DNA of 64,000 bases, taken from NCBI GenBank assembly GCA_000004985.1, contig GG738845.1. One strand, 5' to 3'. The translations under genes were made by a program, and so were the position numbers. The stretch is from Naegleria gruberi. Its lineage: Eukaryota. The notes under the pieces are model-generated. The model was not told the origin of the DNA, did no database searches, and worked only from the letters and a program-made list of their open reading frames with translations. Numbering within the stretch: the stretch's first letter is position 1; each line of letters starts with the position of its first letter. This document shows, piece by piece, positions 1 through 56,600 of the stretch.

Positions 1-3000
1 NNNNNNNNNNNNNNNNNNNNNNNNNNNNNNNNNNNNNNNNNNNNNNNNNNNNNNNNNNNNNNNNNNNNNNNNNNNNNNNNNNNNNNNNNNNNNNNNNNNN
101 NNNNNNNNNNNNNNNNNNNNNNNNNNNNNNNNNNNNNNNNNNNNNNNNNNNNNNNNNNNNNNNNNNNNNNNNNNNNNNNNNNNNNNNNNNNNNNNNNNNN
201 NNNNNNNNNNNNNNNNNNNNNNNNNNNNNNNNNNNNNNNNNNNNNNNNNNNNNNNNNNNNNNNNNNNNNNNNNNNNNNNNNNNNNNNNNNNNNNNNNNNN
301 NNNNNNNNNNNNNNNNNNNNNNNNNNNNNNNNNNNNNNNNNNNNNNNNNNNNNNNNNNNNNNNNNNNNNNNNNNNNNNNNNNNNNNNNNNNNNNNNNNNN
401 NNNNNNNNNNNNNNNNNNNNNNNNNNNNNNNNNNNNNNNNNNNNNNNNNNNNNNNNNNNNNNNNNNNNNNNNNNNNNNNNNNNNNNNNNNNNNNNNNNNN
501 NNNNNNNNNNNNNNNNNNNNNNNNNNNNNNNNNNNNNNNNNNNNNNNNNNNNNNNNNNNNNNNNNNNNNNNNNNNNNNNNNNNNNNNNNNNNNNNNNNNN
601 NNNNNNNNNNNNNNNNNNNNNNNNNNNNNNNNNNNNNNNNNNNNNNNNNNNNNNNNNNNNNNNNNNNNNNNNNNNNNNNNNNNNNNNNNNNNNNNNNNNN
701 NNNNNNNNNNNNNNNNNNNNNNNNNNNNNNNNNNNNNNNNNNNNNNNNNNNNNNNNNNNNNNNNNNNNNNNNNNNNNNNNNNNNNNNNNNNNNNNNNNNN
801 NNNNNNNNNNNNNNNNNNNNNNNNNNNNNNNNNNNNNNNNNNNNNNNNNNNNNNNNNNNNNNNNNNNNNNNNNNNNNNNNNNNNNNNNNNNNNNNNNNNN
901 NNNNNNNNNNNNNNNNNNNNNNNNNNNNNNNNNNNNNNNNNNNNNNNNNNNNNNNNNNNNNNNNNNNNNNNNNNNNNNNNNNNNNNNNNNNNNNNNNNNN
1001 NNNNNNNNNNNNNNNNNNNNNNNNNNNNNNNNNNNNNNNNNNNNNNNNNNNNNNNNNNNNNNNNNNNNNNNNNNNNNNNNNNNNNNNNNNNNNNNNNNNN
1101 NNNNNNNNNNNNNNNNNNNNNNNNNNNNNNNNNNNNNNNNNNNNNNNNNNNNNNNNNNNNNNNNNNNNNNNNNNNNNNNNNNNNNNNNNNNNNNNNNNNN
1201 NNNNNNNNNNNNNNNNNNNNNNNNNNNNNNNNNNNNNNNNNNNNNNNNNNNNNNNNNNNNNNNNNNNNNNNNNNNNNNNNNNNNNNNNNNNNNNNNNNNN
1301 NNNNNNNNNNNNNNNNNNNNNNNNNNNNNNNNNNNNNNNNNNNNNNNNNNNNNNNNNNNNNNNNNNNNNNNNNNNNNNNNNNNNNNNNNNNNNNNNNNNN
1401 NNNNNNNNNNNNNNNNNNNNNNNNNNNNNNNNNNNNNNNNNNNNNNNNNNNNNNNNNNNNNNNNNNNNNNNNNNNNNNNNNNNNNNNNNNNNNNNNNNNN
1501 NNNNNNNNNNNNNNNNNNNNNNNNNNNNNNNNNNNNNNNNNNNNNNNNNNNNNNNNNNNNNNNNNNNNNNNNNNNNNNNNNNNNNNNNNNNNNNNNNNNN
1601 NNNNNNNNNNNNNNNNNNNNNNNNNNNNNNNNNNNNNNNNNNNNNNNNNNNNNNNNNNNNNNNNNNNNNNNNNNNNNNNNNNNNNNNNNNNNNNNNNNNN
1701 NNNNNNNNNNNNNNNNNNNNNNNNNNNNNNNNNNNNNNNNNNNNNNNNNNNNNNNNNNNNNNNNNNNNNNNNNNNNNNNNNNNNNNNNNNNNNNNNNNNN
1801 NNNNNNNNNNNNNNNNNNNNNNNNNNNNNNNNNNNNNNNNNNNNNNNNNNNNNNNNNNNNNNNNNNNNNNNNNNNNNNNNNNNNNNNNNNNNNNNNNNNN
1901 NNNNNNNNNNNNNNNNNNNNNNNNNNNNNNNNNNNNNNNNNNNNNNNNNNNNNNNNNNNNNNNNNNNNNNNNNNNNNNNNNNNNNNNNNNNNNNNNNNNN
2001 NNNNNNNNNNNNNNNNNNNNNNNNNNNNNNNNNNNNNNNNNNNNNNNNNNNNNNNNNNNNNNNNNNNNNNNNNNNNNNNNNNNNNNNNNNNNNNNNNNNN
2101 NNNNNNNNNNNNNNNNNNNNNNNNNNNNNNNNNNNNNNNNNNNNNNNNNNNNNNNNNNNNNNNNNNNNNNNNNNNNNNNNNNNNNNNNNNNNNNNNNNNN
2201 NNNNNNNNNNNNNNNNNNNNNNNNNNNNNNNNNNNNNNNNNNNNNNNNNNNNNNNNNNNNNNNNNNNNNNNNNNNNNNNNNNNNNNNNNNNNNNNNNNNN
2301 NNNNNNNNNNNNNNNNNNNNNNNNNNNNNNNNNNNNNNNNNNNNNNNNNNNNNNNNNNNNNNNNNNNNNNNNNNNNNNNNNNNNNNNNNNNNNNNNNNNN
2401 NNNNNNNNNNNNNNNNNNNNNNNNNNNNNNNNNNNNNNNNNNNNNNNNNNNNNNNNNNNNNNNNNNNNNNNNNNNNNNNNNNNNNNNNNNNNNNNNNNNN
2501 NNNNNNNNNNNNNNNNNNNNNNNNNNNNNNNNNNNNNNNNNNNNNNNNNNNNNNNNNNNNNNNNNNNNNNNNNNNNNNNNNNNNNNNNNNNNNNNNNNNN
2601 NNNNNNNNNNNNNNNNNNNNNNNNNNNNNNNNNNNNNNNNNNNNNNNNNNNNNNNNNNNNNNNNNNNNNNNNNNNNNNNNNNNNNNNNNNNNNNNNNNNN
2701 NNNNNNNNNNNNNNNNNNNNNNNNNNNNNNNNNNNNNNNNNNNNNNNNNNNNNNNNNNNNNNNNNNNNNNNNNNNNNNNNNNNNNNNNNNNNNNNNNNNN
2801 NNNNNNNNNNNNNNNNNNNNNNNNNNNNNNNNNNNNNNNNNNNNNNNNNNNNNNNNNNNNNNNNNNNNNNNNNNNNNNNNNNNNNNNNNNNNNNNNNNNN
2901 NNNNNNNNNNNNNNNNNNNNNNNNNNNNNNNNNNNNNNNNNNNNNNNNNNNNNNNNNNNNNNNNNNNNNNNNNNNNNNNNNNNNNNNNNNNNNNNNNNNN

Positions 3001-6000
3001 NNNNNNNNNNNNNNNNNNNNNNNNNNNNNNNNNNNNNNNNNNNNNNNNNNNNNNNNNNNNNNNNNNNNNNNNNNNNNNNNNNNNNNNNNNNNNNNNNNNN
3101 NNNNNNNNNNNNNNNNNNNNNNNNNNNNNNNNNNNNNNNNNNNNNNNNNNNNNNNNNNNNNNNNNNNNNNNNNNNNNNNNNNNNNNNNNNNNNNNNNNNN
3201 NNNNNNNNNNNNNNNNNNNNNNNNNNNNNNNNNNNNNNNNNNNNNNNNNNNNNNNNNNNNNNNNNNNNNNNNNNNNNNNNNNNNNNNNNNNNNNNNNNNN
3301 NNNNNNNNNNNNNNNNNNNNNNNNNNNNNNNNNNNNNNNNNNNNNNNNNNNNNNNNNNNNNNNNNNNNNNNNNNNNNNNNNNNNNNNNNNNNNNNNNNNN
3401 NNNNNNNNNNNNNNNNNNNNNNNNNNNNNNNNNNNNNNNNNNNNNNNNNNNNNNNNNNNNNNNNNNNNNNNNNNNNNNNNNNNNNNNNNNNNNNNNNNNN
3501 NNNNNNNNNNNNNNNNNNNNNNNNNNNNNNNNNNNNNNNNNNNNNNNNNNNNNNNNNNNNNNNNNNNNNNNNNNNNNNNNNNNNNNNNNNNNNNNNNNNN
3601 NNNNNNNNNNNNNNNNNNNNNNNNNNNNNNNNNNNNNNNNNNNNNNNNNNNNNNNNNNNNNNNNNNNNNNNNNNNNNNNNNNNNNNNNNNNNNNNNNNNN
3701 NNNNNNNNNNNNNNNNNNNNNNNNNNNNNNNNNNNNNNNNNNNNNNNNNNNNNNNNNNNNNNNNNNNNNNNNNNNNNNNNNNNNNNNNNNNNNNNNNNNN
3801 NNNNNNNNNNNNNNNNNNNNNNNNNNNNNNNNNNNNNNNNNNNNNNNNNNNNNNNNNNNNNNNNNNNNNNNNNNNNNNNNNNNNNNNNNNNNNNNNNNNN
3901 NNNNNNNNNNNNNNNNNNNNNNNNNNNNNNNNNNNNNNNNNNNNNNNNNNNNNNNNNNNNNNNNNNNNNNNNNNNNNNNNNNNNNNNNNNNNNNNNNNNN
4001 NNNNNNNNNNNNNNNNNNNNNNNNNNNNNNNNNNNNNNNNNNNNNNNNNNNNNNNNNNNNNNNNNNNNNNNNNNNNNNNNNNNNNNNNNNNNNNNNNNNN
4101 NNNNNNNNNNNNNNNNNNNNNNNNNNNNNNNNNNNNNNNNNNNNNNNNNNNNNNNNNNNNNNNNNNNNNNNNNNNNNNNNNNNNNNNNNNNNNNNNNNNN
4201 NNNNNNNNNNNNNNNNNNNNNNNNNNNNNNNNNNNNNNNNNNNNNNNNNNNNNNNNNNNNNNNNNNNNNNNNNNNNNNNNNNNNNNNNNNNNNNNNNNNN
4301 NNNNNNNNNNNNNNNNNNNNNNNNNNNNNNNNNNNNNNNNNNNNNNNNNNNNNNNNNNNNNNNNNNNNNNNNNNNNNNNNNNNNNNNNNNNNNNNNNNNN
4401 NNNNNNNNNNNNNNNNNNNNNNNNNNNNNNNNNNNNNNNNNNNNNNNNNNNNNNNNNNNNNNNNNNNNNNNNNNNNNNNNNNNNNNNNNNNNNNNNNNNN
4501 NNNNNNNNNNNNNNNNNNNNNNNNNNNNNNNNNNNNNNNNNNNNNNNNNNNNNNNNNNNNNNNNNNNNNNNNNNNNNNNNNNNNNNNNNNNNNNNNNNNN
4601 NNNNNNNNNNNNNNNNNNNNNNNNNNNNNNNNNNNNNNNNNNNNNNNNNNNNNNNNNNNNNNNNNNNNNNNNNNNNNNNNNNNNNNNNNNNNNNNNNNNN
4701 NNNNNNNNNNNNNNNNNNNNNNNNNNNNNNNNNNNNNNNNNNNNNNNNNNNNNNNNNNNNNNNNNNNNNNNNNNNNNNNNNNNNNNNNNNNNNNNNNNNN
4801 NNNNNNNNNNNNNNNNNNNNNNNNNNNNNNNNNNNNNNNNNNNNNNNNNNNNNNNNNNNNNNNNNNNNNNNNNNNNNNNNNNNNNNNNNNNNNNNNNNNN
4901 NNNNNNNNNNNNNNNNNNNNNNNNNNNNNNNNNNNNNNNNNNNNNNNNNNNNNNNNNNNNNNNNNNNNNNNNNNNNNNNNNNNNNNNNNNNNNNNNNNNN
5001 NNNNNNNNNNNNNNNNNNNNNNNNNNNNNNNNNNNNNNNNNNNNNNNNNNNNNNNNNNNNNNNNNNNNNNNNNNNNNNNNNNNNNNNNNNNNNNNNNNNN
5101 NNNNNNNNNNNNNNNNNNNNNNNNNNNNNNNNNNNNNNNNNNNNNNNNNNNNNNNNNNNNNNNNNNNNNNNNNNNNNNNNNNNNNNNNNNNNNNNNNNNN
5201 NNNNNNNNNNNNNNNNNNNNNNNNNNNNNNNNNNNNNNNNNNNNNNNNNNNNNNNNNNNNNNNNNNNNNNNNNNNNNNNNNNNNNNNNNNNNNNNNNNNN
5301 NNNNNNNNNNNNNNNNNNNNNNNNNNNNNNNNNNNNNNNNNNNNNNNNNNNNNNNNNNNNNNNNNNNNNNNNNNNNNNNNNNNNNNNNNNNNNNNNNNNN
5401 NNNNNNNNNNNNNNNNNNNNNNNNNNNNNNNNNNNNNNNNNNNNNNNNNNNNNNNNNNNNNNNNNNNNNNNNNNNNNNNNNNNNNNNNNNNNNNNNNNNN
5501 NNNNNNNNNNNNNNNNNNNNNNNNNNNNNNNNNNNNNNNNNNNNNNNNNNNNNNNNNNNNNNNNNNNNNNNNNNNNNNNNNNNNNNNNNNNNNNNNNNNN
5601 NNNNNNNNNNNNNNNNNNNNNNNNNNNNNNNNNNNNNNNNNNNNNNNNNNNNNNNNNNNNNNNNNNNNNNNNNNNNNNNNNNNNNNNNNNNNNNNNNNNN
5701 NNNNNNNNNNNNNNNNNNNNNNNNNNNNNNNNNNNNNNNNNNNNNNNNNNNNNNNNNNNNNNNNNNNNNNNNNNNNNNNNNNNNNNNNNNNNNNNNNNNN
5801 NNNNNNNNNNNNNNNNNNNNNNNNNNNNNNNNNNNNNNNNNNNNNNNNNNNNNNNNNNNNNNNNNNNNNNNNNNNNNNNNNNNNNNNNNNNNNNNNNNNN
5901 NNNNNNNNNNNNNNNNNNNNNNNNNNNNNNNNNNNNNNNNNNNNNNNNNNNNNNNNNNNNNNNNNNNNNNNNNNNNNNNNNNNNNNNNNNNNNNNNNNNN

Positions 6001-28103: not shown

Positions 28104-28104
28104 T

Positions 28105-33400: not shown

Positions 33401-34177
33401 CAAAATATTTTTGAAAATTCTTTTGAAAACTCGTTTTTTGAAAAAATAATTGATTTCTCTTACATTTTGTCTTATGGAAAGGTGAAGATTTTAAACTTCA
33501 ATCATTATGATGAGTCTTTCAACTCTGTTTTCATAACCGAAGCTGAAGCATCATATATGAACGAGCATGACAGACCTTATTTCTATAAATCATCAGACAC
33601 TGCATGGGATATTCTGAATAAGGATTTCCCTTCTCATGCCATTTGTGAGAATTTTGAAAAACTAGAAACATTAGCATCTGAAGGTGTTGACAGCCGCATG
33701 ATATTTGGTGGCTTTTGTGGAGGAGATTGTGAATTGCTGCTTTTTCATCCTGATTGTGAAGAGTTAAAAAATGGGAACACTGAAATGAGCTATCTGAAAG
33801 AGGCACTTACAAATCGAAGAATGGAACATTTTGGAGAGATTACTTGTGGATGGATGAATTTTGATGACCTAGTTGGTCCTGGTATTGAAATGACAAATGC
33901 AAAATGTGGGAATATTACTAGAGAAAATATTTGGATTTCCAATGAATGTTGTACATTCAATTATAATCCAAACAAGACTCTTGAAGAGAACAACAAGGAA
34001 CGACAAGCTAAACAGAAAGCAAATAAGGGTTTAAAGTATGTCAATCACCCCAAAAGATTTAATCAACTTGAATGTGGACATCACCACTTAAGAGAAACAA
34101 TACCTCTCTATGATTTAAAATTCTTGTTTTATTCGGCAACACCCTTCAATTTCAAAGAGTTTTATGATAATAAATAA
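30401..34177 (+). CDS. Large uncharacterised protein (1258 aa from the ATG at 30401; about 1538 aa if fused to the upstream exon); C-terminal Cys/His-rich region; no confident family assignment
   Basis: 3.8 kb uninterrupted ORF ending in TAA (34175-34177). The upstream in-frame sequence is open back to 30365. The ATG at 30401 lacks the A-rich leader seen at other starts. Confidence 0.6.
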   Translation: MEQIEWLSTKYLPNIFRHRVDWENSLTKRSELIYKLLSYFSKQPDQTNKDWSSIICSQYPVMVKRNGQYMLIFGIRWKPFTNINNTIQSLREKGLYGLEFNTEHFNNFPYFFRDGKECIPTERPNVTSSTLLRDFKKQLKTQIIDRSGTNKYSFPKHPPFRHWVFDFFFNQSMLSKNDFLAVMEGRRSLLEIILKYRPDQVLENQIYQTLITQIEECLKSSRRGHSFKNTIGHSDLKSIQIPDSSKYLSLFLPFYFHIDDSEMLRVDHLFSINLEEYIRYFRRVLSELSDSNLSQVGILDIFEIRESIQENIMYNHKNHINNSLFNVVEISNPSKGHYIIDIIPNLIETIRSNVKFLRLDNLYWKLYSRGLYIPENPILHRDFILQSIKTFLHDLKNRQDKTARKFNTKQEDTNLLQDNLTLMSRFLNLKWKRPLAYVQVMTPSTRLVISKLVKTYFHPLHQVLQHEHGSPTIPSKLVNTIIPFQSRVSTFAIKLLEVTPSQNNNNQEDTLVDTVKTFIGKYKHDVHRCEKQLSNRLLFLFLTECAMRNIITTDNVLPKLALIFKKHVHDNDTCLLPCVDSIEREIISLKNFPNNLKKIEKCNLNTSHLHPLVISNTLMWRNDFTDISNLKALIWNSLKTTNYLINPIKVIIANFEKENTYIWNNMLEQSFDVLAIENIKHHVSSFFPIRSREEEEKEWSVHYKRLQKLGIDYLQYYPFKDLHAKALLSLSKKSLTTTKLEEKEDIIDMFFQPIDTLNSNSRLVLDNSINSLSLKKSTSSLYNRQFGFLYNDLSDMRKPNQFLDDWDLTLTIKCMSRRILRKLKQATQRREILGRMETTFNISSELSAEILEFSSFMIESMDKHSNKESKLLKKFKNITNGGSDKQKFSSLQELIEQVLEFCKKYEISRISHETITDSPEQILLPREQSSYCPATTVRNSINNNEIYSIVPFIERTLTRSKTKEIISNTLTRYEEDDLLFQNQMKMVEYSPFLHYFEKKIQNIFENSFENSFFEKIIDFSYILSYGKVKILNFNHYDESFNSVFITEAEASYMNEHDRPYFYKSSDTAWDILNKDFPSHAICENFEKLETLASEGVDSRMIFGGFCGGDCELLLFHPDCEELKNGNTEMSYLKEALTNRRMEHFGEITCGWMNFDDLVGPGIEMTNAKCGNITRENIWISNECCTFNYNPNKTLEENNKERQAKQKANKGLKYVNHPKRFNQLECGHHHLRETIPLYDLKFLFYSATPFNFKEFYDNK

Positions 34178-36370: not shown

Positions 36371-38514
36371 ATGCCAATTTCACTTTTGTATGATTTTGAA
36401 GAAACCTCGGAACAGATTATTATTAAAGTTAATCTTAAAGGAGCTACCAGAAGTAGTCTCTCCACCACTATTTCTGATTGTTATATCAAAGTCAATTGCC
36501 CACCTCATCATTTTTTGGAATTAGATTTGAAGGAGACAATTGTGTTGGATGACTCATCGAGAACACACAAAGTTGAGGGTCACAATGTTGTGTTTGTTTT
36601 GAAAAAGAAGGATAAAAAGGAGTGGGGTTCTGCAATCTTGAAACCAAATGATGAAGTTAGCAAGGAGATGATCGAATCTAGAAGAAAGGAGTCTCTGGAA
36701 AGACTCTCGAAAATGGAGGCAGAAGAAAGAGAGGAAAGAAAAAAACAAAGGACAAAAGAAGAACAGAGACTTTTAGAGCTTCATTGGCAAGAGGAAAAGA
36801 AAAAGAGAGAGGATATTGAAAGAAAGAAACAAGAAGAAAAGGAGCAAGCAGCACTTGAATTGAGTCAACTTAAAGAAAGAGATGAAACATCTTCCCAAAA
36901 ATCTGAAAAATACAGGGTTGCAAATCAAAGACAAGTAACTATTGAAGATATTACTGAGGAGGATATAGCTGTTGATGAAAAGAACTCAAATTATGAACAT
37001 TTTACTGCACCAATCAGACAGACAGAAACATCAACTATTAAGTTATCATTCACACCAAGAGCATTGAGGACTCCTGCAAGGGAGGACAAGGATAGTGAAA
37101 CATTGAAAAAATACGAAATTTGGAGAAGAAAAAACAAACCTGCAGAATTGGAAGAAAATGGTAAGTATTTATTACTCTAAATAAGGTAAAATTTCTAGTT
37201 GTGTGGGTGATTGAAAGAGGAGATAAATTTATGAAAAAGAAAAATTTCAACTCTGCAATTAGTGCCTACACTGAGGCTTTACACATGGAATCGAGTGTCA
37301 TTACATGTTTGCCGAAGAGAGCAGAGTGTTTCTTTGAAAGAAAAGAATATTTGAAGGCTATCGAAGATTGTACCAATTTTTTGAACACTGAATCAAAACA
37401 GAATGCTCAAATAGAAGATAAATTCCTGCTTCAAGCATTAACAACAAGATCGAAATGCTATAAGGAGATTTCAGATCTTAAGAAAGCACTGGAGGATGTG
37501 AAAATAGCATATAGAATTGACTCGAGTATCGAACTACAAAAAATGATAAGAGAGTTAGAAAATACTCTATCAAAAGAGTTGATGGAAGACAAAGATAAGG
37601 CTGATTTGTTGAAAGATCAAGCTGATCAAGAATACTTTGAACAAAGATTTGAAGAGGCCATCAAGCTCTATACTGATGCCATCAATCATAGAGCTCATTT
37701 CTTCAGAGCCTATAGCAACAGATCTGTTTGCTACCTTCAACTGAATAGATACTTTGAGTGCATTCAAGACTGTACATATATTCTTCAAAACATTCATTCC
37801 AAATCGGTTCCTGAGCCCGAAAAAAAGAACGCTGCTTCTTTCATCCTCAAATCATACCTGAGAAGAGGTACATGTCATTTTAAAGTTGGTGACTACAATA
37901 ATTCATATAAGGACTATGAGCAAGCATCAAGAATGGCTCCAGAGGATGAAGAAATTCTTGCCGACTTGGAAAAAGTCAACGAAGAACTTACCTCCAAACT
38001 TCAAGGGGATTGGTTAAAAAATACAGCCAACAACTTTTACTTAAGAGGAGATTTTGCTTCTGCTATTCATTCCTATACATTGGCTGTCAATCTTGACAAG
38101 ACGAATCCAGTTTATTATTCCAACAGAGCTCAGTGTTTCTTTAAAACTGGTGACTTTGTCAGATGTGTAAAGGATTGCAATACAGCCCTCTCCGTGCTAT
38201 CTGAAGATGATGAACTGAAAGTCGATCAAATTCTGGAAGAGGAAAAAAACGTTGAAGCAATGCAAGACTCAAAGAAGGAAAAGGAAGAGTTTCCGACTAA
38301 TCCAAAACTTACTCCTAAATTGCAACTTAAACTCTACCTTAAAAGAGCAGTTGCTTACAAGGAGATGGAAGAATACGAAAGAGCCTTTTTAGATATTCGA
38401 AGAGCTCACCAACTCGAGCCTGAAAATAAGGAAATCAAATCAGAATATGATTCTATTGAAAAATTATATGAGTTAACTAAAAAAGATGAAATCAAAATTG
38501 AGATAAAGGAATAA
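36371..38514 (+). CDS. DNAAF4: DYX1C1/DNAAF4-like protein (N-terminal CS/p23 domain, charged coiled-coil linker, C-terminal TPR repeats), about 701 aa: join(36371..37160,37199..38514); 38-nt intron GTAAGT..TCTAG
   Basis: The N-terminus MPISLLYDFEE..YIKVNCPPHHFLELDL..VVFVLKKKDKKEW aligns with the human DYX1C1 CS domain (YLKVNFPP..IVFTLYKKE..W). TPR-like repeats in the second ORF. The two ORFs (36293..37180 and 37201..38514) join in frame across a GTAAGT..TAG 38-nt intron. The real start is the ATG at 36371 with an A/T leader. Confidence 0.65.
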
Positions 38515-43374: not shown

Positions 43375-46300
43375 ATGATCAAGAAATTGGGCGTAAAAGC
43401 TCAAAAATTTTCTCTCATACTTCACCCTGCATTTAAACACGCAACTGATCAACATAAAACAAAACTTGTTGAAGAATCGGAAGGTCATGTTGTTCATCAT
43501 GTTATTAGTGAAGATTGTCTTGATGGAGAGTCTAAAGTTAATAGTGAAGAATTAATTGTTAGTGATTTGATTGATGAAGATATTGATGAAGATGATAAAA
43601 AAGAGATTGATGAAAATTTACTTCAAAAAGCATTATACTATGCTCTATTAACTTTACATTTACCGATTCATATGGTTCCTGAAAGAATTCAAGATGTTCC
43701 CCTCACACTCTCACAATTACAAGGTGAAGTTTTAAAATTATTTGAACCCAAGTTAACTCTTGAAGAGTTGCAAAAAACTTGGAATGAAATATATATTCAG
43801 AAATCAGATAATGGCTCTATTGATTTAATTGTAGATTTTCTATTGTTGAGAAAGTATATTTTTGAAAACGAACATCAATTACCATATACAACCTCTGATT
43901 TTGTTAGTGTGGAGAAGTATCAGTTTTGGAGACATAACAAGATTAAGGAAATTGACCTCATGTTGGATAGTATTAAAACTGCTAGAAAGAAGGAATTCAA
44001 TTGCAAGTTGGAATTTGAATTTGATAATGTTATCCTAAACAATTCTGAGTCTCTTGTTAAGAAAACTGAGTGCGATTTGATGTATCATTTGGATACAACT
44101 GATCCTGAGAGTTCCATTAAAATTAACAATGATACCAAAACTAAAACTGTATATGAATCAAAACCTGTAGAAACCAAGAAGAAGGATGCTGCTTTTAAAC
44201 CAATCTTTAAAGAACTTGTTAAATTGTAAGTGTTACCTCTAATGATGTGTTCTAACTTCTTCAAATATGTAGATCTCTAGCAAATAGAGATCAAGAGGTA
44301 AAATTTTCTATCATCTTGTCAAAATATGCAGGTTTGAAAAAGAAGGAAATTGGTCACGTTATTATTCCAGTTACCAGTTTAATTGAAAAACTTTTCCCAA
44401 AAACAAATTGGGGAAACATTGATCAACCGATTCGAGCTGATTTTCCAATTGTTTTTAATAATTCAACTATTGGTGATATTCAACTCAAAATTACAAGAGG
44501 AAATTATCAATACTTCCCAGCAAATCAAAATAATTGGACTACATATGTTTCCAAGAGGCTTGACTTTATCAAGAATAATTTAAATACATTTGATATTCCA
44601 GATGTTTACAAGATCAAAAAAGTTCTATTAAGAAGAGCATTTAATTCGCCAAAGACAGACCTTAACTTAGTGACTTATGTTCAAAAATGGATTCTTGGAG
44701 AGATTGACCTCTTATTTGGTATGTCTACCCATAATGCAGAAATTAGTTTGTTAGATGTACTTTCAAGAAATATTCGTTTTTTAATTTCATTTGCTGATCA
44801 ATTTTCAAAAAGTTATCAAACTGCTACAAAAATAATTAGTGATAATATTAAACAAACCAACAAGATCAACCAAATTATGGACAAGACTGAAAAGAAAGTT
44901 GTTGATCTCTTAATGCATTTCAAGGAGAGATTCCCAAGAAACAAACCAGATGGTGCTTTAGAAAATGTTGTTAAACTATATGACACCATTATTTCTGTAC
45001 ACAAAAAACATTCATTTGAAGAATTTTTAGATATTCTTAAAGACCTTTTGAAAAAGTCACTCGAAAATGATTATTTGCTTATTAAGAAGCAACAATTAGA
45101 GGTTTTCAAAACAGAAGAGTTGAATGCCAAGGTGTTAATTGGAATGATTCCAGGGATTGTATACAAATTGGATAGGTAAGTTGACATGTCATTTAAAATT
45201 TCAAAATATTTTCAAAAACCTTAATTGACCAAACAACTTAACATCACTTTCAAAGACTCTATGATTATTCTGATACACTCCCACAGGATGTTAAATATGA
45301 AAGCATGAACATGATCTATTATGAATTGTTCAAGAAGGATTTCCAACAAGTTGCTCAATCAGGAGGGTTCTCTGGTTATCAGATGTTGCATTTTTGCACT
45401 AAGATTAAAGATTTAGCTGAAGTGATTGGAAACTCCAACGATTTGAGTCAAAAAAAATCCGAATTGATTGACATCGCTGAAGTTTCTAAAGGCTATGAAG
45501 AAAAATTCATTGAAGAATTAGCGGCTAAACTCGGTGATTGCGCAGATCAATCTATTAAGATTGACAATTGGGTACCAGTTAATCAAGACGTGAAACACTC
45601 AACAAGTGTTGTTGATTTTTACACTGCAGCTAACGAGATTTGGAACTATGTTTCTGAATTGGAGTTTTTCAATGAACATTTATTGCAAATGTTCACAGAA
45701 ATGTTGGCAAAGGTCACTCTCGATTATGCAAATAAGGTTAAAAATATTGCAGTACAAATTATTACTAGAAATACAAAAGAGAAATCAAGTACATCCCCAA
45801 CAACTGAAAAGACCAAAAAATCCAAAACAATCAACCTCTTTAGTAGAAATGAAGTTAAAAACGCGGAGCAAGAGAGTGATTTAATTTATTCTGAGATTGA
45901 ATTGACCTCAGATTTTTTAATAATGCTTAATAATATTAGCGTTTCGAAGCAAGAAATGGAAGAAATTATCGATAGTATTATTGAAAAACAAAAGGACTTG
46001 AAAGATAGTGAAGAAGTCACTAGACAAGTAGAAAGAAACGAGGAAGAAGATTTGGACTTGGAAAATGAAGAAGATTTGAAAAAGACCTCAGATATGATTG
46101 GTGAGCATCAAATGAGTGCTCTTGAAAAATCCAGAAAAAATATTGACCTTATTATTGAATCATTGATTGCTATCATCTCCTCCAGTTTCAGAGTTCCAAT
46201 TAGAAGTACACTACAAAATATTTTTAACAAAACTAAAACCTTGGTTGAAAAAAGTTCACCATCGAACAGACCCCTCTCCAAAGATACTACTCTCAAAATT

Positions 46301-48663: not shown

Positions 48664-50722
48664 ATGATTAACTTTGTGTATCAGTTGATTATAATATTAC
48701 TCCTGCCAGGTATTCTAATCAATAGTACTTGTTGTATTTCTGGAATACCACAAGAAGAAGATACACCAATTAAAATACTAAAGGATGGAGAAATAATTCC
48801 ATTCAATAGAACCATGTTAGTTCTCATCGATCAAAGTAGCACTCCAAGAGAAGAAACTCTAGATATTGTGAGTGATGGTATTTCGTTAACATTCTCAATT
48901 CTCTCTGTAATTGGATCCTTAGCTGTGTTTGGAATGTTTTTCTTTGAACATGCTTGGGTGTTTGGTAGAGAAAAGGAACAGAAAGCAAATTATAGACGTT
49001 CTCTCAAAAGAAATACCATCAAGGATCTGGATATTCTGCAACAACACCATGTTGAATATATGAAAAAGAAGAGGCAAGTAATTTCTCAGAAAAAGAGAGA
49101 GTTTGTGCGGAGAATGATGTTATCATTGATGGTGTCAGATGTAATTTGTTCATTGAGTAGGATTATGTTTGTTGTTTGGTGGTGGATTTGTACTCAAGCA
49201 GCTCCTAATGAAATGTTCAATCATTTTACAGGTCCAGTTCAAAATTTTGGAACCAATTCATCTCAAATTATTACGAATGGATCCATTTCTTTGACTAGTT
49301 TTATTTCACCTCCTCTTTCGAAAGTCATTACAATTCATTTCAATACCAATGGAAAGGAAAAGAATAATGGGAAGGGAAAGGATAAAAAACCAGTTATTGA
49401 TAAAAAGAATGGAGGAAGTAAGAATGGTTCCATAATTGAGTATTTGTCTGATCCGTTTGGAGAAACAAACAAGTTCAACAAAAAGCAAATGGCCTTAATT
49501 GAACCTCCATCTTTCTATTCAGTGTTCAGGATTGATGGGAATGATTCCATGAATGGGACAATGTTTTATTCCTATTTTGAAATGAAAACAGCACCTCAAT
49601 TGTTTTTAGGATTTCTTGCCAATGTTAATTATGCATCATGCCTGTCAACTGCTTCCTGGGTTGCAATAGTGGCCTTTTCTGTTTTAGCAACAACGAGGCA
49701 AGTCAGTTGGGATGACGAAATGCAAGAGGAAAGTGATGACGAATCAAAGAAGGTGAAAATATTATGTGTTGAAACTGTTTTTCATTCATTTTCATGGGGA
49801 ATAGCCTTTTTTTCGTTTTTCATTATTTTTCTTCTTAGAGTAGTTTCTCACACAACACCAACAATAGATAAGACAATAATTAACATCATTACCAGTATAC
49901 TCTATATTATGTGGGCCCTGTTTTTTACCCTGGTATGTTATTAATTTCATTCAAATTAACAAAAAACAGATAATAACTATTCTTATTATAATATTAGGTT
50001 GTATTTGGAGAAAAATAGGAATACACTTCAACAAGTCTCAATTGATATTCCCAAAATTGGAGACAAGAAAAAGACAGCGTTCAGTAATACTAAAATTAAG
50101 CATGCTCCTTCTCCCATTCGCTTTTTGTGGAATTTTTGAAGTCATATTTTGGTATTACAATGCTGTCACAACTCTAACTCAACAAGATGATGTTCTCTTT
50201 GTTGTGATATTTTACAACTTTCTTTACAATGTTATCGTTCCATTGAAAGGCTTTCTTTTGGCTATTGCCTTCTTATTGGGTTCACCAGAAGTGAGATCAT
50301 GTCTCAAATGCTGTTGTTTTTGTAATAGTTTTGCTACTAGTGATTATAGCTCTAGCACAGAATCCCTTCTAGATGGTCATATTGAGGAAGCAAATAGCAT
50401 CACATCTGTTTTTGAAAATGTTAGGACAAGACTCCGAACGCCCAGCTCAGAATATGCAGGATTATACTATTCCAACTCGGCAACCACGCCAAGAACACCA
50501 CAGTTCCCAATTAGTGATTCAGAAGAGCCTAAATCCTCAGCTCACTACACAACACTGGACAGAGTGAAAGCAACCTATGCCACTATCTCAACAGAATCCA
50601 TTGAGGGAACTCTTATCACTTTTGGCCGTCTCTACACTGGTGCATCAACAAGAACCAATCAACAACAAGTGCTCCAAACTAATAGCTCTGAAATATCTGA
50701 AGACATTCATATTAATATTTGA
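48664..50722 (+). CDS. Seven-transmembrane receptor (GPCR-like; TM7 PLKGFLLAIAFLLGSPEVR resembles family-B/cAMP-receptor-like LQGF..A..Y.F.N.EVQ) with signal peptide, about 673 aa: join(48664..49932,49970..50722); 37-nt intron GTATGT..AACAG
   Basis: N-terminal hydrophobic signal, seven predicted TM helices, a CCCF motif after TM7. ORFs 48664..49944 and 50042..50722 join in frame across the 37-nt intron, and the frame is open from 49970. Confidence 0.6.
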
Positions 50723-50752: not shown

Positions 50753-53079
50753 TTAAAAGTTTTCCAAATCCAATTCCTTAAGGGTATCCTTCTTATTGGA
50801 TGATGAAGCATTGCTTGATGATTTGGTCTTCTTCTTGGATGGTTCCGTTCGCTTAGAAGATGGGGCACTTGTGGATTCAGTTGACTCATCTCCTCTCTTT
50901 CTCTTAAGTTTAGTCTCTTCCATTTCTTTGAGAGCAGATTCTTCTTCATCCTCTTCTTCCTCGAAGGTAACCTTTTCGTCCAATTTGGCAGCAACTCTTT
51001 CCAAAACTTCTCTGTCTTGTTTCTTCTTTTCGTTTGCATAGTACTTGTCGAGAGGTGTTTCAGTATCCTTTAAGAATTCTATAACCTTGTCAAATTCAAG
51101 TGGAGTGAAATTAATCTTGGATTTGGATTCGTTTACAAAAATGATATTGTCATTCACATGCTTAACAAGATTAGTTATTTGCTTGGAGATACCAAAATGG
51201 AGTGTTTCAGTATGTGATTTAACATACTTCTTCAAAAAGTTTGTAATTGGATAGGAAAGTTCTGGGAAGGCAACAGACTTACTATGATTAGCCAAGTGAT
51301 CCAAAAGTAAGAAACAACAATCATCAATGATTCTTTGATGGAATTCTCTAGATTTGAGTTCCTCAGGTACAGCCTTGAGTTTGAATTCGAAATATAATGG
51401 TTGTGGTTTTTGATTTTGTTTTGGAGTGTTAATAGCTTGTTTCAATTGTAAAATTTCAAAAACTGTTTGCGAAATTGGAATAAAACTCTTGTCACAATCT
51501 CTCGAAAGTTGGTTGAGCATGGTCAAAATCTTAACTTTGAATGGATAATGTTTGGCAGAATTAGTTAAACCAATAGCAGCCATAGCAATTTGTGTGACTG
51601 GGTAGAGAAGTGCTGAAATATTTTCTTGCTTGTAATAGGCACATATAACCTTTGACCAGGCATCCAAACAGTGGAAGAATTTCCAATTATAACATAAAGC
51701 ATAACCATTTTGAACTGTTGAGTCCATAGCTCTTCTCACCGTTATAGCAAGTTCTCTAATGTATGTAAAGGCATGATGGTAAGTACTAGTAAAGTTGATT
51801 GTTGACAATTCTACAAGACAATTCTTCAAAAATTCAATTTGATGGAATGTAGATGGGTTATACCCTTTAGAATTTCTCAAAAGAGTATAGTAAATACCCT
51901 TAATACATAATTCTAGGAATGGATATGGATAAATAACAGCCATACTATTGATAATAATAAATGCTCTAACTCTAACATCTTCATTGGAATGACCTAACAA
52001 GTTGAGCATGAGTCTCAAAATTTTCTTTGGTTGAGCTTCAAATAAACCATAGAATGGAACGAGTCTTACGAAATAGTGCAAAACATAAATCAATAATTTT
52101 TCATCCAAAGTCTTTTCCATCATTTGGTGGAACGCATTAATAAATGTTGAGAGAGCTAATTTAATTTGTTTCCATCCAGAATGTTTAGCTGGTAATTTGT
52201 TTCTATTATTAATATAGTTAATGAAACTATTTCCTAAAAAAATTACTTACGATCCTTGTTCATATTTTGTCAAAATAGTTGCCAAATCTCCCAAACACTT
52301 AACACAAGCCATTGTAACTCTTGCAAATGTTGCAACATCAGGAACAACATATGGAATTTCTGGTTCTTTTTCCTTCTTTTTTGATTCTTGATTTTCTCCT
52401 TCCTTCTTCAAACCTGATCTGAAACATAAAATCAAGTGGAATAATGGTTGCACAGCGTTAGAAGTTTTAATCTTTTTAACCCAACGAGCAATCAATGCTT
52501 TTGTTACTTTAATTCTATTACCAAATTCTTTAGTATCCTTTTCATCTTCTTCTTGTATTTCACCTGCAATTCTTTCAAAGTATTGTTCATCTTCTTCGTC
52601 TACTTCTTGTTGATCAGTAACATCATCAGTCATTTCATCATCCTCTTCCTTATCACCTCCGTGGAAAACTTCCTCATCAGAATCATCAGAAACACTAGCA
52701 ATCAATTGTTGAATTTCTTCTTCTTCTTCCTTTGTTGTTTTTCCTCCTTCTTGTTTAAGTTTTTCAAGGAATTCCTCAACTTCATGTTTAGTTATACTAT
52801 TTAATGTTAAAATCATCATGATTGTTTCAGTTGTACATACCCATTATCATTTTTTGTTGATTCCTTCTTATCCTTCTTCTTAGATATCTTCAAATAATGT
52901 TGGTCAAGTTGTTGTTCTTCTTGTTCGGAATCGGAAAGGTCATCTCTTTTCAGCTTTTCATTTCTAATAGTTTCTCTAATATACTTTTGTTGACCAATCT
53001 TTTGAGTTCTTATCTTGGCTTTAACCAAACTTTTATTGGATTTGTATTTTTTATCACTCTTTGTTTGCTTTTTACCCAT
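50753..53079 (-). CDS. NOC2L: Nucleolar complex protein 2 (NOC2/NOC2L), about 752 aa: complement(join(50753..52226,52251..52796,52841..53079)); introns of 44 nt (GTATGT..AATAG) and a candidate 24-nt micro-intron (GTAAGT..AATAG)
   Basis: The N-terminus MGKKQTKSDKKYKSNKSL.. resembles yeast Noc2 (MGKVSKSTKKFQSKHL..). ..HEVEEFLEKLKQE.. matches DPEFYKFLQEND. HAFTYIRELAITVRRAM matches HAFLYIRQLAIHLRNAM. LCYNWKFFHCLDAW matches SVYNWQYVHCLFLW. The sequence upstream of the ORF-track start at 52123 is conserved NOC2 sequence in the same frame, interrupted by a single TAA. Confidence 0.75.
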
Positions 53080-53371
53080 TATTGTGAAGTACCGATTTTT
53101 TTTTGAAGTTTTTTATTTTCAATAAATTTTTGAATGGCAATAATTCTCATCACAACCTGCAGAATTTTGCTGCATTTATTTGTTTTTCATAATAATTTAA
53201 AACTGAAAGAAAACTGTTATCAGAGTGGCAGAAAGCTTGTAGTAACCACTATCACACAGGATAGATAATCACAAATTTCATTGACAAAAAATTAGGTACT
53301 ATGAAAAGTAACTTAAAGTTGTCAATAATATATTATACTTTTTATTAATTTTTTAAAAAAATACCTCAAAA

Positions 53372-53527
53372 ATGTCTGCTGAAGGTCATCACGGTCCATA
53401 CAATACTCGTTTGTTCTCTTGGAGAATGATTGCGATCGCCGCCGGTTTCTCCATGATTCCTTTGTTGTTCTCAAAGCCTGCTCCTCAACCAAAGACTGAA
53501 ACTTTCACTCCTCCAAGTAGGTATTAA
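53372..53527 (+). CDS. Small single-pass membrane protein, about 51 aa: MSAEGHHGPYNTRLFSWRMIAIAAGFSMIPLLFSKPAPQPKTETFTPPSRY. Possibly a COX7C/Cox8-family subunit. The 3' end is uncertain: a GTAGGT donor at 53517 could splice to 53562 or 53577
   Basis: A-rich leader (cctcaaaaATG). One predicted TM helix. G-Y-N--F..AAGF-MIP resembles the COX7C/yeast Cox8 pattern. Below the ORF-track size cutoff. Confidence 0.3.
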   Translation: MSAEGHHGPYNTRLFSWRMIAIAAGFSMIPLLFSKPAPQPKTETFTPPSRY

Positions 53528-53684
53528 TAATTTAAATTATTCTTGATTTTCTTTTATTCAGAACATTAAATTTCAGACACCATGGGACTTTAATAAAAAA
53601 ACTACTTTTAAATTCTAACAAAATTCATTATTTGAAAGTTTCATATTATTGCTTGCCGATGATTATTGCTACACCTTCAAAAAA

Positions 53685-56600
53685 ATGTCTTCGTTGGAGC
53701 AGTGGGTGAGTGACGAATTATACGATGTAATCAAGTATAGTAGCACCACTGTCAGTAGCTATGTAATCAATTTGGCAACTAAATATCAAGCCAATCCTTC
53801 CAAGTTAATTAAAGAATTGGAAAAAGAATTACTGTCACCTGATGAAGTGCCTGTACATCATTCCAAGATTGATTCATTTGCTAGACATCTCATTCTAAAA
53901 TTACCATCCATTAATAGTTTGAAATCATCCGAGTCATCAATATCAAAAACTAATTCTAAATATTCGTCAGCAATTAGTGAGGATGTATCTTCCTTGTTGG
54001 TACTTTCCGAGGAAGAAGATAATCAAGACAAGAAAAAGAAAAAAAAGAAAAAGAATGTAAACTTGAGAAGAAAGATATCGACAAATGACAATGATGAGGA
54101 AGATCAAATGCCACCTAAAAAGGTTAAACACGAAGAGGAGGATCAGATTTTCATTTCACAAGATTCTATTGAGGACAACAACCAAAGCTCTTCAGCAGCC
54201 GAGGAAAATCAACATGATAATCAACAAATTGTAAATAATAATGAACCAAAGAAAAGGTTAACTAGGGAGGAACTTTTATCTCAAAGAGCTAAAAATCCTC
54301 AAGACAGGAGAATAGTTCTGGAAGAATTGAGAAAAAAATCTAGAAATCACTATCTTAATGAGAGAGAAAAGAAATTGTTACGAGAATTGGAAAATAATCT
54401 CATAGAAGAAGAAATTAATAGACGAGATGAGGACTTGACAGAATCTGAAAGATTGGAAAGAGAATCTAAAAGAAAAATTTTGGAATATACCAAAAATAGA
54501 AATAAGAAGAAACATACCGATTATTTTCAAATGCCAGATACATACTACGATCCAGAAACAGGAGTTTCCAAGAATAGAGACAAATTGGAGCTCATTAAGA
54601 AAAGAGATGACTACATTGACCATCATCACAAGGGCAACAGATCATCAGATCAGAAAAAATTGGAAGATGATCTCATTCAACAATCTACGATGAAGTTTGG
54701 AGCAATGGATAGACTTAAGCAAGCTGAAAGGGAATACGAAAAGGAAAAACAAGTTGAATTGGAAATTGAGGATGAAATTGAATTTATTCAAGAAATACTT
54801 GAAGGAAAGAGAGAAATGCCAAAAGAATTAATGAAAGAGCTTGGATTGAGCGAAACGCCAGGTACAGAAAAGAAAAAAACCTTATCAATGGAGGAGTTCA
54901 GAAAAACATTACCAATCTATCAAATGAGAGACAAGCTAATTCAAGCTGTACAAGATAATCAAGTAGTTATCATTGTTGGTGAAACAGGTTCCGGTAAAAC
55001 CACTCAATTGACTCAATATTTACACGAGGCTGGGTTCACTAAGAATGGGAAAAAAATAGGGTGCACCCAACCTCGTAGGGTAGCTGCAACTTCAGTAGCT
55101 ACTCGTGTTGCTGAGGAAATGGGAACTAAAATAGGAGATAAGGTCGGATACACCATTCGTTTTGAAGATCTCACATCTGAGAATACAATTATCAAGTATA
55201 TGACTGATGGTATGCTTTTAAGAGAGTTTCTCAAAGAACCTGATTTGGGAAGTTATAGTGTATTAATGATAGATGAAGCTCACGAACGGTCACTTCATAC
55301 TGATATTCTATTTGGGCTTGTGAAAGATATTGTTAGATACAGAAATGACATTCGTTTAATCATATCAAGTGCAACAGTTGAAGCTGAAAAATTTTCAAAG
55401 TACTTTGATGGAGCACCAATTTTCAATGTTCCTGGAAGAAAATTTCCTGTTGATGTTTACTATACAAAAGCTCCTGAGAATAATTATCTAGATGCAGCCG
55501 TTGTTACAGTTCTTCAAATCCATCTTTCCCAACCTGATGGTGATATTTTAGTATTTTTAACAGGTCAGGATGAAATTGAAAAATGTGAAGATATGCTAAC
55601 AGAAAAGCTTAAAATGATACCATCAAAAGGCAAAGGACTAATTGTAGTACCAATTTATTCTACCTTACCTTCAGATCAACAAGCCAAAATTTTTGAACCT
55701 ACTCCACAAGGCTTTAGAAAATGTGTTTTAGCAACCAATATTGCTGAAACATCACTTACCATCGATGGAATAGTTTATGTAGTTGACTCTGGATATTGTA
55801 AGCAAAATAGTTATAATCCAAGAAGTGGAATGTCTTCATTAGTTGTCACTCCAATTTCAAAAGCTGCTGCAATTCAAAGAACAGGCAGAGCTGGAAGAGT
55901 GGCACCTGGAAAATGTTTCAGATTATATACATCCTATTCATTTAATAATGAGCTGGAAGAAAGTCCAACACCTGAAATTCAACGTACTAATCTAGGAAAT
56001 GTTGTATTGTCATTGAAAAATTTGGGAATTAATGATTTGATTAATTTTGATTTTATGGATCCTCCACCTCCAGAAACATTAATTGCTGCTCTTGAACAAT
56101 TATATGCCCTGGGAGCTCTAAATGATGCTGGCGATTTGACATCAATGGGCAGAAGAATGTCAGAATTTCCACTTGACCCACAACTATCCAGAATGCTTAT
56201 TGCCTCTGAAAAATATGGTTGCACAGAGGAAATTGCAACCATTTGTGCTATGCTATCTGTAAATAATTCTATATTTTTTAGACCAAAAGAAAATGAGTTA
56301 CAATCTGATAATGCAAAAAAATCATTCCACCATCAACATGGTGATCATTTGACTCTTCTTAATGTTTTTAATGAATGGGTAGAAACTGGTTATAGTATTC
56401 CTTGGTGCCACCAACATTTTATTCAAGAAAGGTCAATGCTAAGAGCAAAAAAAATCAGAGAACAACTGGTACAACTTATGGAAAAGGTTGAGATTGAATT
56501 AATTTCAAACAGTGAGGATTCTGAAGCCATACGAAAGGCTATTACAAGTGGTTTCTTCTACAATGTAGCTACGCTTGAAGGACACACAGGAAGTTACAGG

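Follow-up and report, generated by a model that had tools for sequence, protein, structure and literature searches.

The window analysed here, a 64,000-nt stretch of Naegleria gruberi contig GG738845.1 (assembly GCA_000004985.1), consists of N at positions 1–28103 (padding or a gap), while the real sequence, with a GC content of approximately 33%, starts at 28104. On its minus strand, a long reading frame extends from an ATG at 53079 to a stop codon TAA at 50755–50753 and encodes NOC2 (nucleolar complex protein 2). The protein matched the Pfam family Noc2 (PF03715) with an E-value of 2.7e-88 (296 bits versus a cut-off of 29.9) and, among proteins with solved structures, human NOC2L (8fkv, E=4e-28) and yeast Noc2 (7nac, E=3e-13). 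Its closest relatives were the proteins of Naegleria lovaniensis, with a full-length identity of 75%, and Willaertia magna (53%), with two metagenome-derived Naegleria-like proteins also among the best, and no full-length identical protein was found in the protein collection searched. These relatives place the sequence in Naegleria (Heterolobosea), and the GC content together with the 75% identity to N. lovaniensis suggests a gruberi-like species. Two further features lie nearby, namely a small minus-strand ORF upstream of NOC2 (53370–53530), whose start reads MSAEGHHGPYNTRLFSWRMIAIAAGFSMIPLLFS.., and a large plus-strand gene of about 1,100 codons that starts near 53687.

The NOC2 frame is interrupted twice: the first break is an intron of 44 nt (GTATGT...TAG, 52840..52797), the second a single in-frame TAA (52249–52247). 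An earlier, sequence-only reading of this DNA had attributed the TAA to a candidate 24-nt micro-intron. Direct reading of the letters confirmed that the frame is open on both sides of this single TAA, that a GTAAGT begins at 52250 and that an in-frame TAG lies 24 nt downstream; every coordinate given in that reading was correct. The sequence printed for the candidate contained 8 T's (25 letters), where the genome has 7 T's (24 nt). The features of the gene, together with the other short introns of the window, are as follows (a caret marks a splice junction, or the corresponding site, here and below):

52841–53079, minus strand: NOC2 exon 1, with the ATG at 53079 and an open frame; its N-terminus aligns with that of the N. 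lovaniensis protein P0001.
52797–52840, minus strand: NOC2 intron 1, 44 nt, phase 2, GTATGT...TTTTAAC...AATAG, joining two long open frames.
52251–52796, minus strand: NOC2 exon 2, ending ..AAA TAT GAA CAA GGA TC (..KYEQG plus the first two bases of a Ser codon).
52203–52250, minus strand: predicted NOC2 intron 2, 48 nt, phase 2, GTAAGTAATTTTTTTAGGAAATAGTTTCATTAACTATATTAATAATAG, as indicated by orthologous introns, intronless orthologues and a branch motif.
52245–52250, minus strand: 5' splice site GTAAGT of intron 2, read directly; the same hexamer occurs in the orthologous loci L001, L003 and L006.
52227–52250, minus strand: the 24-nt candidate of the sequence-only reading, corresponding to the 5' half of intron 2; the TAG at its end is internal to the intron, in frame and located before the branch motif.
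52217–52221, minus strand: putative branch site TTAAC (context cATTAAC), whose A would be the branch point, at position 33 of the intron and 15 nt from the 3' end.
52203–52205, minus strand: predicted 3' splice site TAG of intron 2, the first AG after the branch motif (the AG itself at 52204–52203).
50753–52202, minus strand: NOC2 exon 3, starting A AAC AAA TTA CCA (..S NKLPAKHSGWKQ..) and running through the stop TAA at 50755–50753.
37161–37198, 44226–44272, 45176–45255 and 49933–49969, plus strand: other short introns of the window, from the ORF-joining census described below.

The in-frame TAA comprises bases 2–4 of the GTAAGT donor hexamer. Since the donor G is the third base of a Ser codon (TCG), intron 2 is a phase-2 intron, and the product of an unspliced transcript would be truncated, given the immediate in-frame TAA that a GTAAGT donor creates in this phase. 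The letters from 52250 to 52227 read GTAAGTAATTTTTTTAGGAAATAG, exactly 24 nt with a TAG at their end, and their removal keeps the frame (..KYEQGS^FINYINN..). A second in-frame acceptor at 52203 defines a 48-nt intron, within which these 24 nt are contained, with a junction at 52251^52202 rather than 52251^52226. Downstream of the donor hexamer, the 48 nt carry two internal AGs, at +17 and +24; each of them would be in frame with a probability of one in three, so that an internal in-frame AG is not unusual. The branch motif cATTAAC is located downstream of the +24 TAG, with the +48 acceptor as the next AG after it, and no YTNAY or YTAAC motif was found inside the 24-nt candidate. The GC content was 0.21 in the first 24 nt of the intron and 0.12 in the second 24 nt, compared to 0.33–0.34 in the exons.

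An extended GT donor, an AG that joins the conserved protein in frame and a branch-site motif thus all point to an intron of the U2 type (GT-AG). A U12-type intron was also considered and rejected, as the donor is the U2-type GTAAGT and not the U12 consensus (ATATCC or GTATCC). Upon removal of the 48 nt, the NOC2 coding sequence comprises 2235 nt and 744 amino acids with one terminal stop. Its Gln codons are 35 CAA and 0 CAG, and no other stop occurs in frame within the 744 codons; the genetic code is thus standard, without any sign of stop-codon reassignment. Neither spliced junction (ATATGAACAAGGATC N{0,30} AAACAAATTACCAGC) was detected when JGI metagenome and metatranscriptome contigs were scanned.

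Distant homologues are unable to discriminate between the two acceptors, but close relatives are able to do so. The 24-nt form had been favoured because its product aligns with human NOC2L across the junction; this alignment, with one gap, was reproduced, but there is essentially no identity across the residues FINYINNR. That the 24-nt product aligns nearly gap-free is explained by the human loop, which is about seven residues longer at this place, and the choice of 24 nt therefore followed from a length fit to the longer human NOC2L loop, while the close relatives have a shorter one. When the read-through translation of the window gene, with the TAA entered as Q, was aligned with its orthologues, those of Naegleria and Willaertia lacked 16 residues (the stop and the following VIFLGNSFINYINNR) and not 8.

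Three further Naegleria lineages carry a phase-2 intron at exactly the same codon, its length being 48 nt in L006, 75 nt in N. lovaniensis L001 and 126 nt in L003. These three introns begin with GGATC^GTAAGT and so give the same in-frame TAA, and in all three the acceptor ..TAG directly adjoins [A/T]AAC/T-AAR (Asn-Lys). Their interiors are mutually unrelated, as expected for intron sequence, and contain no in-frame internal AG; the +24 AG is thus not conserved there. Of the orthologues in which a counterpart of the micro-intron was to be sought, according to the sequence-only reading, these three do have an intron at this codon, but one whose acceptor is the counterpart of the 48-nt form. The L006 locus, with its intron at approximately 719–766, was reached through a protein search with the conserved junction region alone, which returned three fragments, one of which (P0015) led to it; a search of metagenome contigs with the conserved exon-3 alignment matched 330 patterns, none of which was confirmed. 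The four orthologous intron lengths at this site (48, 48, 75 and 126 nt) are all divisible by 3, which may be a coincidence.

The intron of the window gene is orthologous to one that is already annotated in N. lovaniensis (gene C9374_013151, contig PYSW02000067.1). The two share the codon, the phase (2), the GGATC^GTAAGT donor with its in-frame TAA and the ..AATAG^A-AAC-AA acceptor context, and the N. lovaniensis intron is removed in the annotated protein. They differ in length (75 nt versus 48 nt here) and in their unrelated interiors, and the N. lovaniensis intron has no in-frame internal AG. The annotation of N. lovaniensis was made with RNA-seq-guided BRAKER1 (PMC6125883), and its protein model has exactly the orthologous intron removed, which lends indirect support to the predicted removal of intron 2 from the mRNA.

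Two relatives lack the intron altogether. One is L002, a Naegleria-like contig among the JGI metagenomes, where the site reads GGATCA^AACAAATTGCCA (longer reading, GGATCA^AACAAATTGCCAGCC; protein ..GS^NKLPAK..); the other is Willaertia magna L004, with GAATCA^AATAGATTA (longer reading, GAATCA^AATAGATTACCT; protein ..ES^NRLPK..). Both are colinear with the 48-nt product (GGATC^A AAC AAA TTA CCA GCT, giving ..KYEQGS NKLPAKHSGWKQ..). The eight residues FINYINNR that the 24-nt splice would keep are encoded in none of the relatives compared, with or without the intron. L002 is genomic, as seen from the genes that flank NOC2 there on both strands and from an intron 1 that is probably still in place. 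In this contig, the ORF call P0002 (ORF 781–3027) seems to have taken in that intron 1, a stretch of 36 nt at approximately 1040–1080 that is in frame and free of stops (GTGCGT...AATCAG), and the database protein P0002 would consequently contain 12 spurious residues (..RCVSILNSTNTIS..). Overall, the window species, L006, N. lovaniensis and L003 have intron 2, and L002 (~1617) and W. magna L004 (~3802) lack it at a precisely colinear site. This lineage-dependent distribution implies that the intron either was gained within Naegleria or was lost precisely in independent events.

The comparison shows where the intron lies, which acceptor is the orthologous one and that the protein is colinear; the choice between the two acceptors can additionally be set against the other introns of the window. 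We performed a census of introns that join ORFs, requiring at least 60 open codons on each side and an interrupted read-through. This strict census returned six confident introns of 37, 38, 44, 47, 48 and 80 nt, the 48-nt one being NOC2 intron 2, and roughly reproduced the range of 37–87 nt previously given for the neighbouring introns (37, 38, 44, 47 and 80 nt in our hands). At 48 nt, intron 2 is typical for the window (37–80 nt). A YTAAC motif with its branch A 10–17 nt before the 3' end was present in five of the six, compared to a chance expectation of 3.2% per intron (P for at least five of six, ~2e-7), and all five have the first AG past the motif as their acceptor. In NOC2 intron 1, the A of the TTAAC motif lies 10 nt from the 3' end. 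The 38-nt intron carries CTAAA in place of YTAAC. No other candidate under approximately 30 nt that joins long ORFs was found in the window. A looser census (at least 35 codons on each side) was set aside as too noisy, as it placed false 'introns' inside clearly coding NOC2 sequence, for example at 51282.

The same kind of ambiguity was observed in a second place. A minus-strand candidate intron at 33750–33810 offers an in-frame AG at either 31 nt or 61 nt, and a TTAAC lies 14 nt before the 61-nt acceptor, such that the longer form agrees with the branch-site rule seen locally. A yeast-like YTAAC near the acceptor might be a useful gene-prediction feature for this genome.

Given these observations, we consider it very probable that the TAA belongs to a 48-nt phase-2 intron of NOC2 (52250..52203 on the minus strand), an ordinary spliceosomal intron of the U2 type. 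The branch adenosine within cATTAAC, 15 nt from the 3' end, would most likely be used together with the first AG after it, whereby the exons would be joined as ..GGA TC^A AAC AAA.. to yield ..TKYEQGS-NKLPAKHSGWKQ.. in a 744-aa protein. The TAG at +24 would then be one of the internal AGs, lying before the branch site and in frame by chance. We infer the branch point from the motif as it occurs in the six local introns, and the splicing event itself is likewise predicted from the genomic letters. What had been proposed earlier is thus supported with respect to a spliceosomal intron that removes the TAA and starts with the GTAAGT at 52250, a donor and TAA shared by three other lineages; it is not supported with respect to the length of 24 nt, nor to the idea of an intron near the lower size limit, since both the relatives' acceptors and the intronless proteins match the AG at 52204–52203.

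An alternative 3' splice site, with the 48-nt acceptor as the major one and low-level use of the +24 TAG, would produce a minor isoform that is eight residues longer. Both acceptors are in frame, and the insertion would fall where distant NOC2 homologues have loops of differing length. Nevertheless, we regard this possibility as very improbable: the only good branch motif comes after the +24 AG, whose use would require a different and very cramped branch site, and because this AG is absent from L006, L001 and L003, any such isoform would be lineage-specific noise. If true, a genuine +24 acceptor would mean a spliced micro-intron of 24 nt and a NOC2 isoform with an eight-residue loop insertion, and hence a conventional spliceosome able to excise an intron far below the usual minimum.

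Even less credence can be given to constitutive removal of the 24 nt alone (52250..52227), in which case the protein would retain FINYINNR. This reading has in its favour the in-frame GTAAGT...TAG and a product that fits the longer human NOC2L loop with one gap, albeit in length only. Against it speak the eight extra residues that neither intron-bearing nor intronless relatives encode, the strong branch motif that lies downstream of its TAG, the lack of any YTNAY or YTAAC motif within the 24 nt, the intron-like GC content (0.12) of the 24 nt that would be retained and the lack of any further candidate under approximately 30 nt joining long ORFs of the window. The authors of the N. fowleri genome study moreover set the minimum intron length at 30 bp, 'based on an assessment of predicted genes' (PMC8296547). 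A micro-intron of ~25 nt or less would need both of its splice sites supported, whereas the supported acceptor lies at +48.

Finally, the absence of any splicing, be it through a sequencing error, a TAA read as Gln as in ciliates, read-through or a pseudogene, would be in keeping with a single in-frame TAA flanked by open frame on both sides, but is hardly conceivable, considering that the TAA recurs within GTAAGT in three other lineages, that the code is not ciliate-like, that no orthologue has the 16 residues which reading through this TAA, the only one in frame in the whole gene, would insert and that the remainder of NOC2 is intact and conserved. L005, a contig from an unrelated metagenome assembly (ERR1078381), shows 99.3% identity with the window across 5,025 nt, with 13 mismatches and 2 gaps, and carries the identical 48 nt, TAA included. 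Together with the GTAAGT/TAA conserved in the three other lineages, this excludes a base-call error, which had been offered along with read-through as an alternative; likewise, a corrected genomic sequence without the TAA, named as a possible refutation, is not what the second assembly provides.

In comparison with known systems, the proposed 48-nt intron resembles the short U2-type introns of Naegleria in its GTAAGT/GTATGT-type donor, its YAG acceptor, its YTAAC-like motif near the acceptor and its AT-richness, and differs from them in nothing material, even though 48 nt is at the short end genus-wide. The median intron length of N. lovaniensis is 80 bp (PMC6125883), and mean intron lengths of 126–203 bp were reported for N. 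fowleri and N. gruberi (PMC8296547).

The 24-nt candidate shares nothing but its nominal length with the micro-introns of Stentor, Paramecium and nucleomorphs. To our knowledge, micro-introns of ~15–25 nt are known only where they are the genome-wide norm, namely in Stentor, Paramecium and the nucleomorphs of chlorarachniophytes. The situation differs here, with no other candidate below ~30 nt and with the acceptor at +48, and this too speaks against a 24-nt intron.

More generally, AT-rich genomes with short introns often have internal in-frame AGs, which constitutes a trap for annotation: an acceptor chosen by its length fit to a distant homologue, in this case human NOC2L, can create spurious micro-introns. 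Such an ambiguity can be settled by close relatives in combination with the branch-site rule, that is, the first AG after YTAAC. Biologically, NOC2 intron 2 would be a routine short intron of little weight, and the practical value of the finding lies in the annotation, with a predicted junction at 52251^52202 and a protein of 744 aa.
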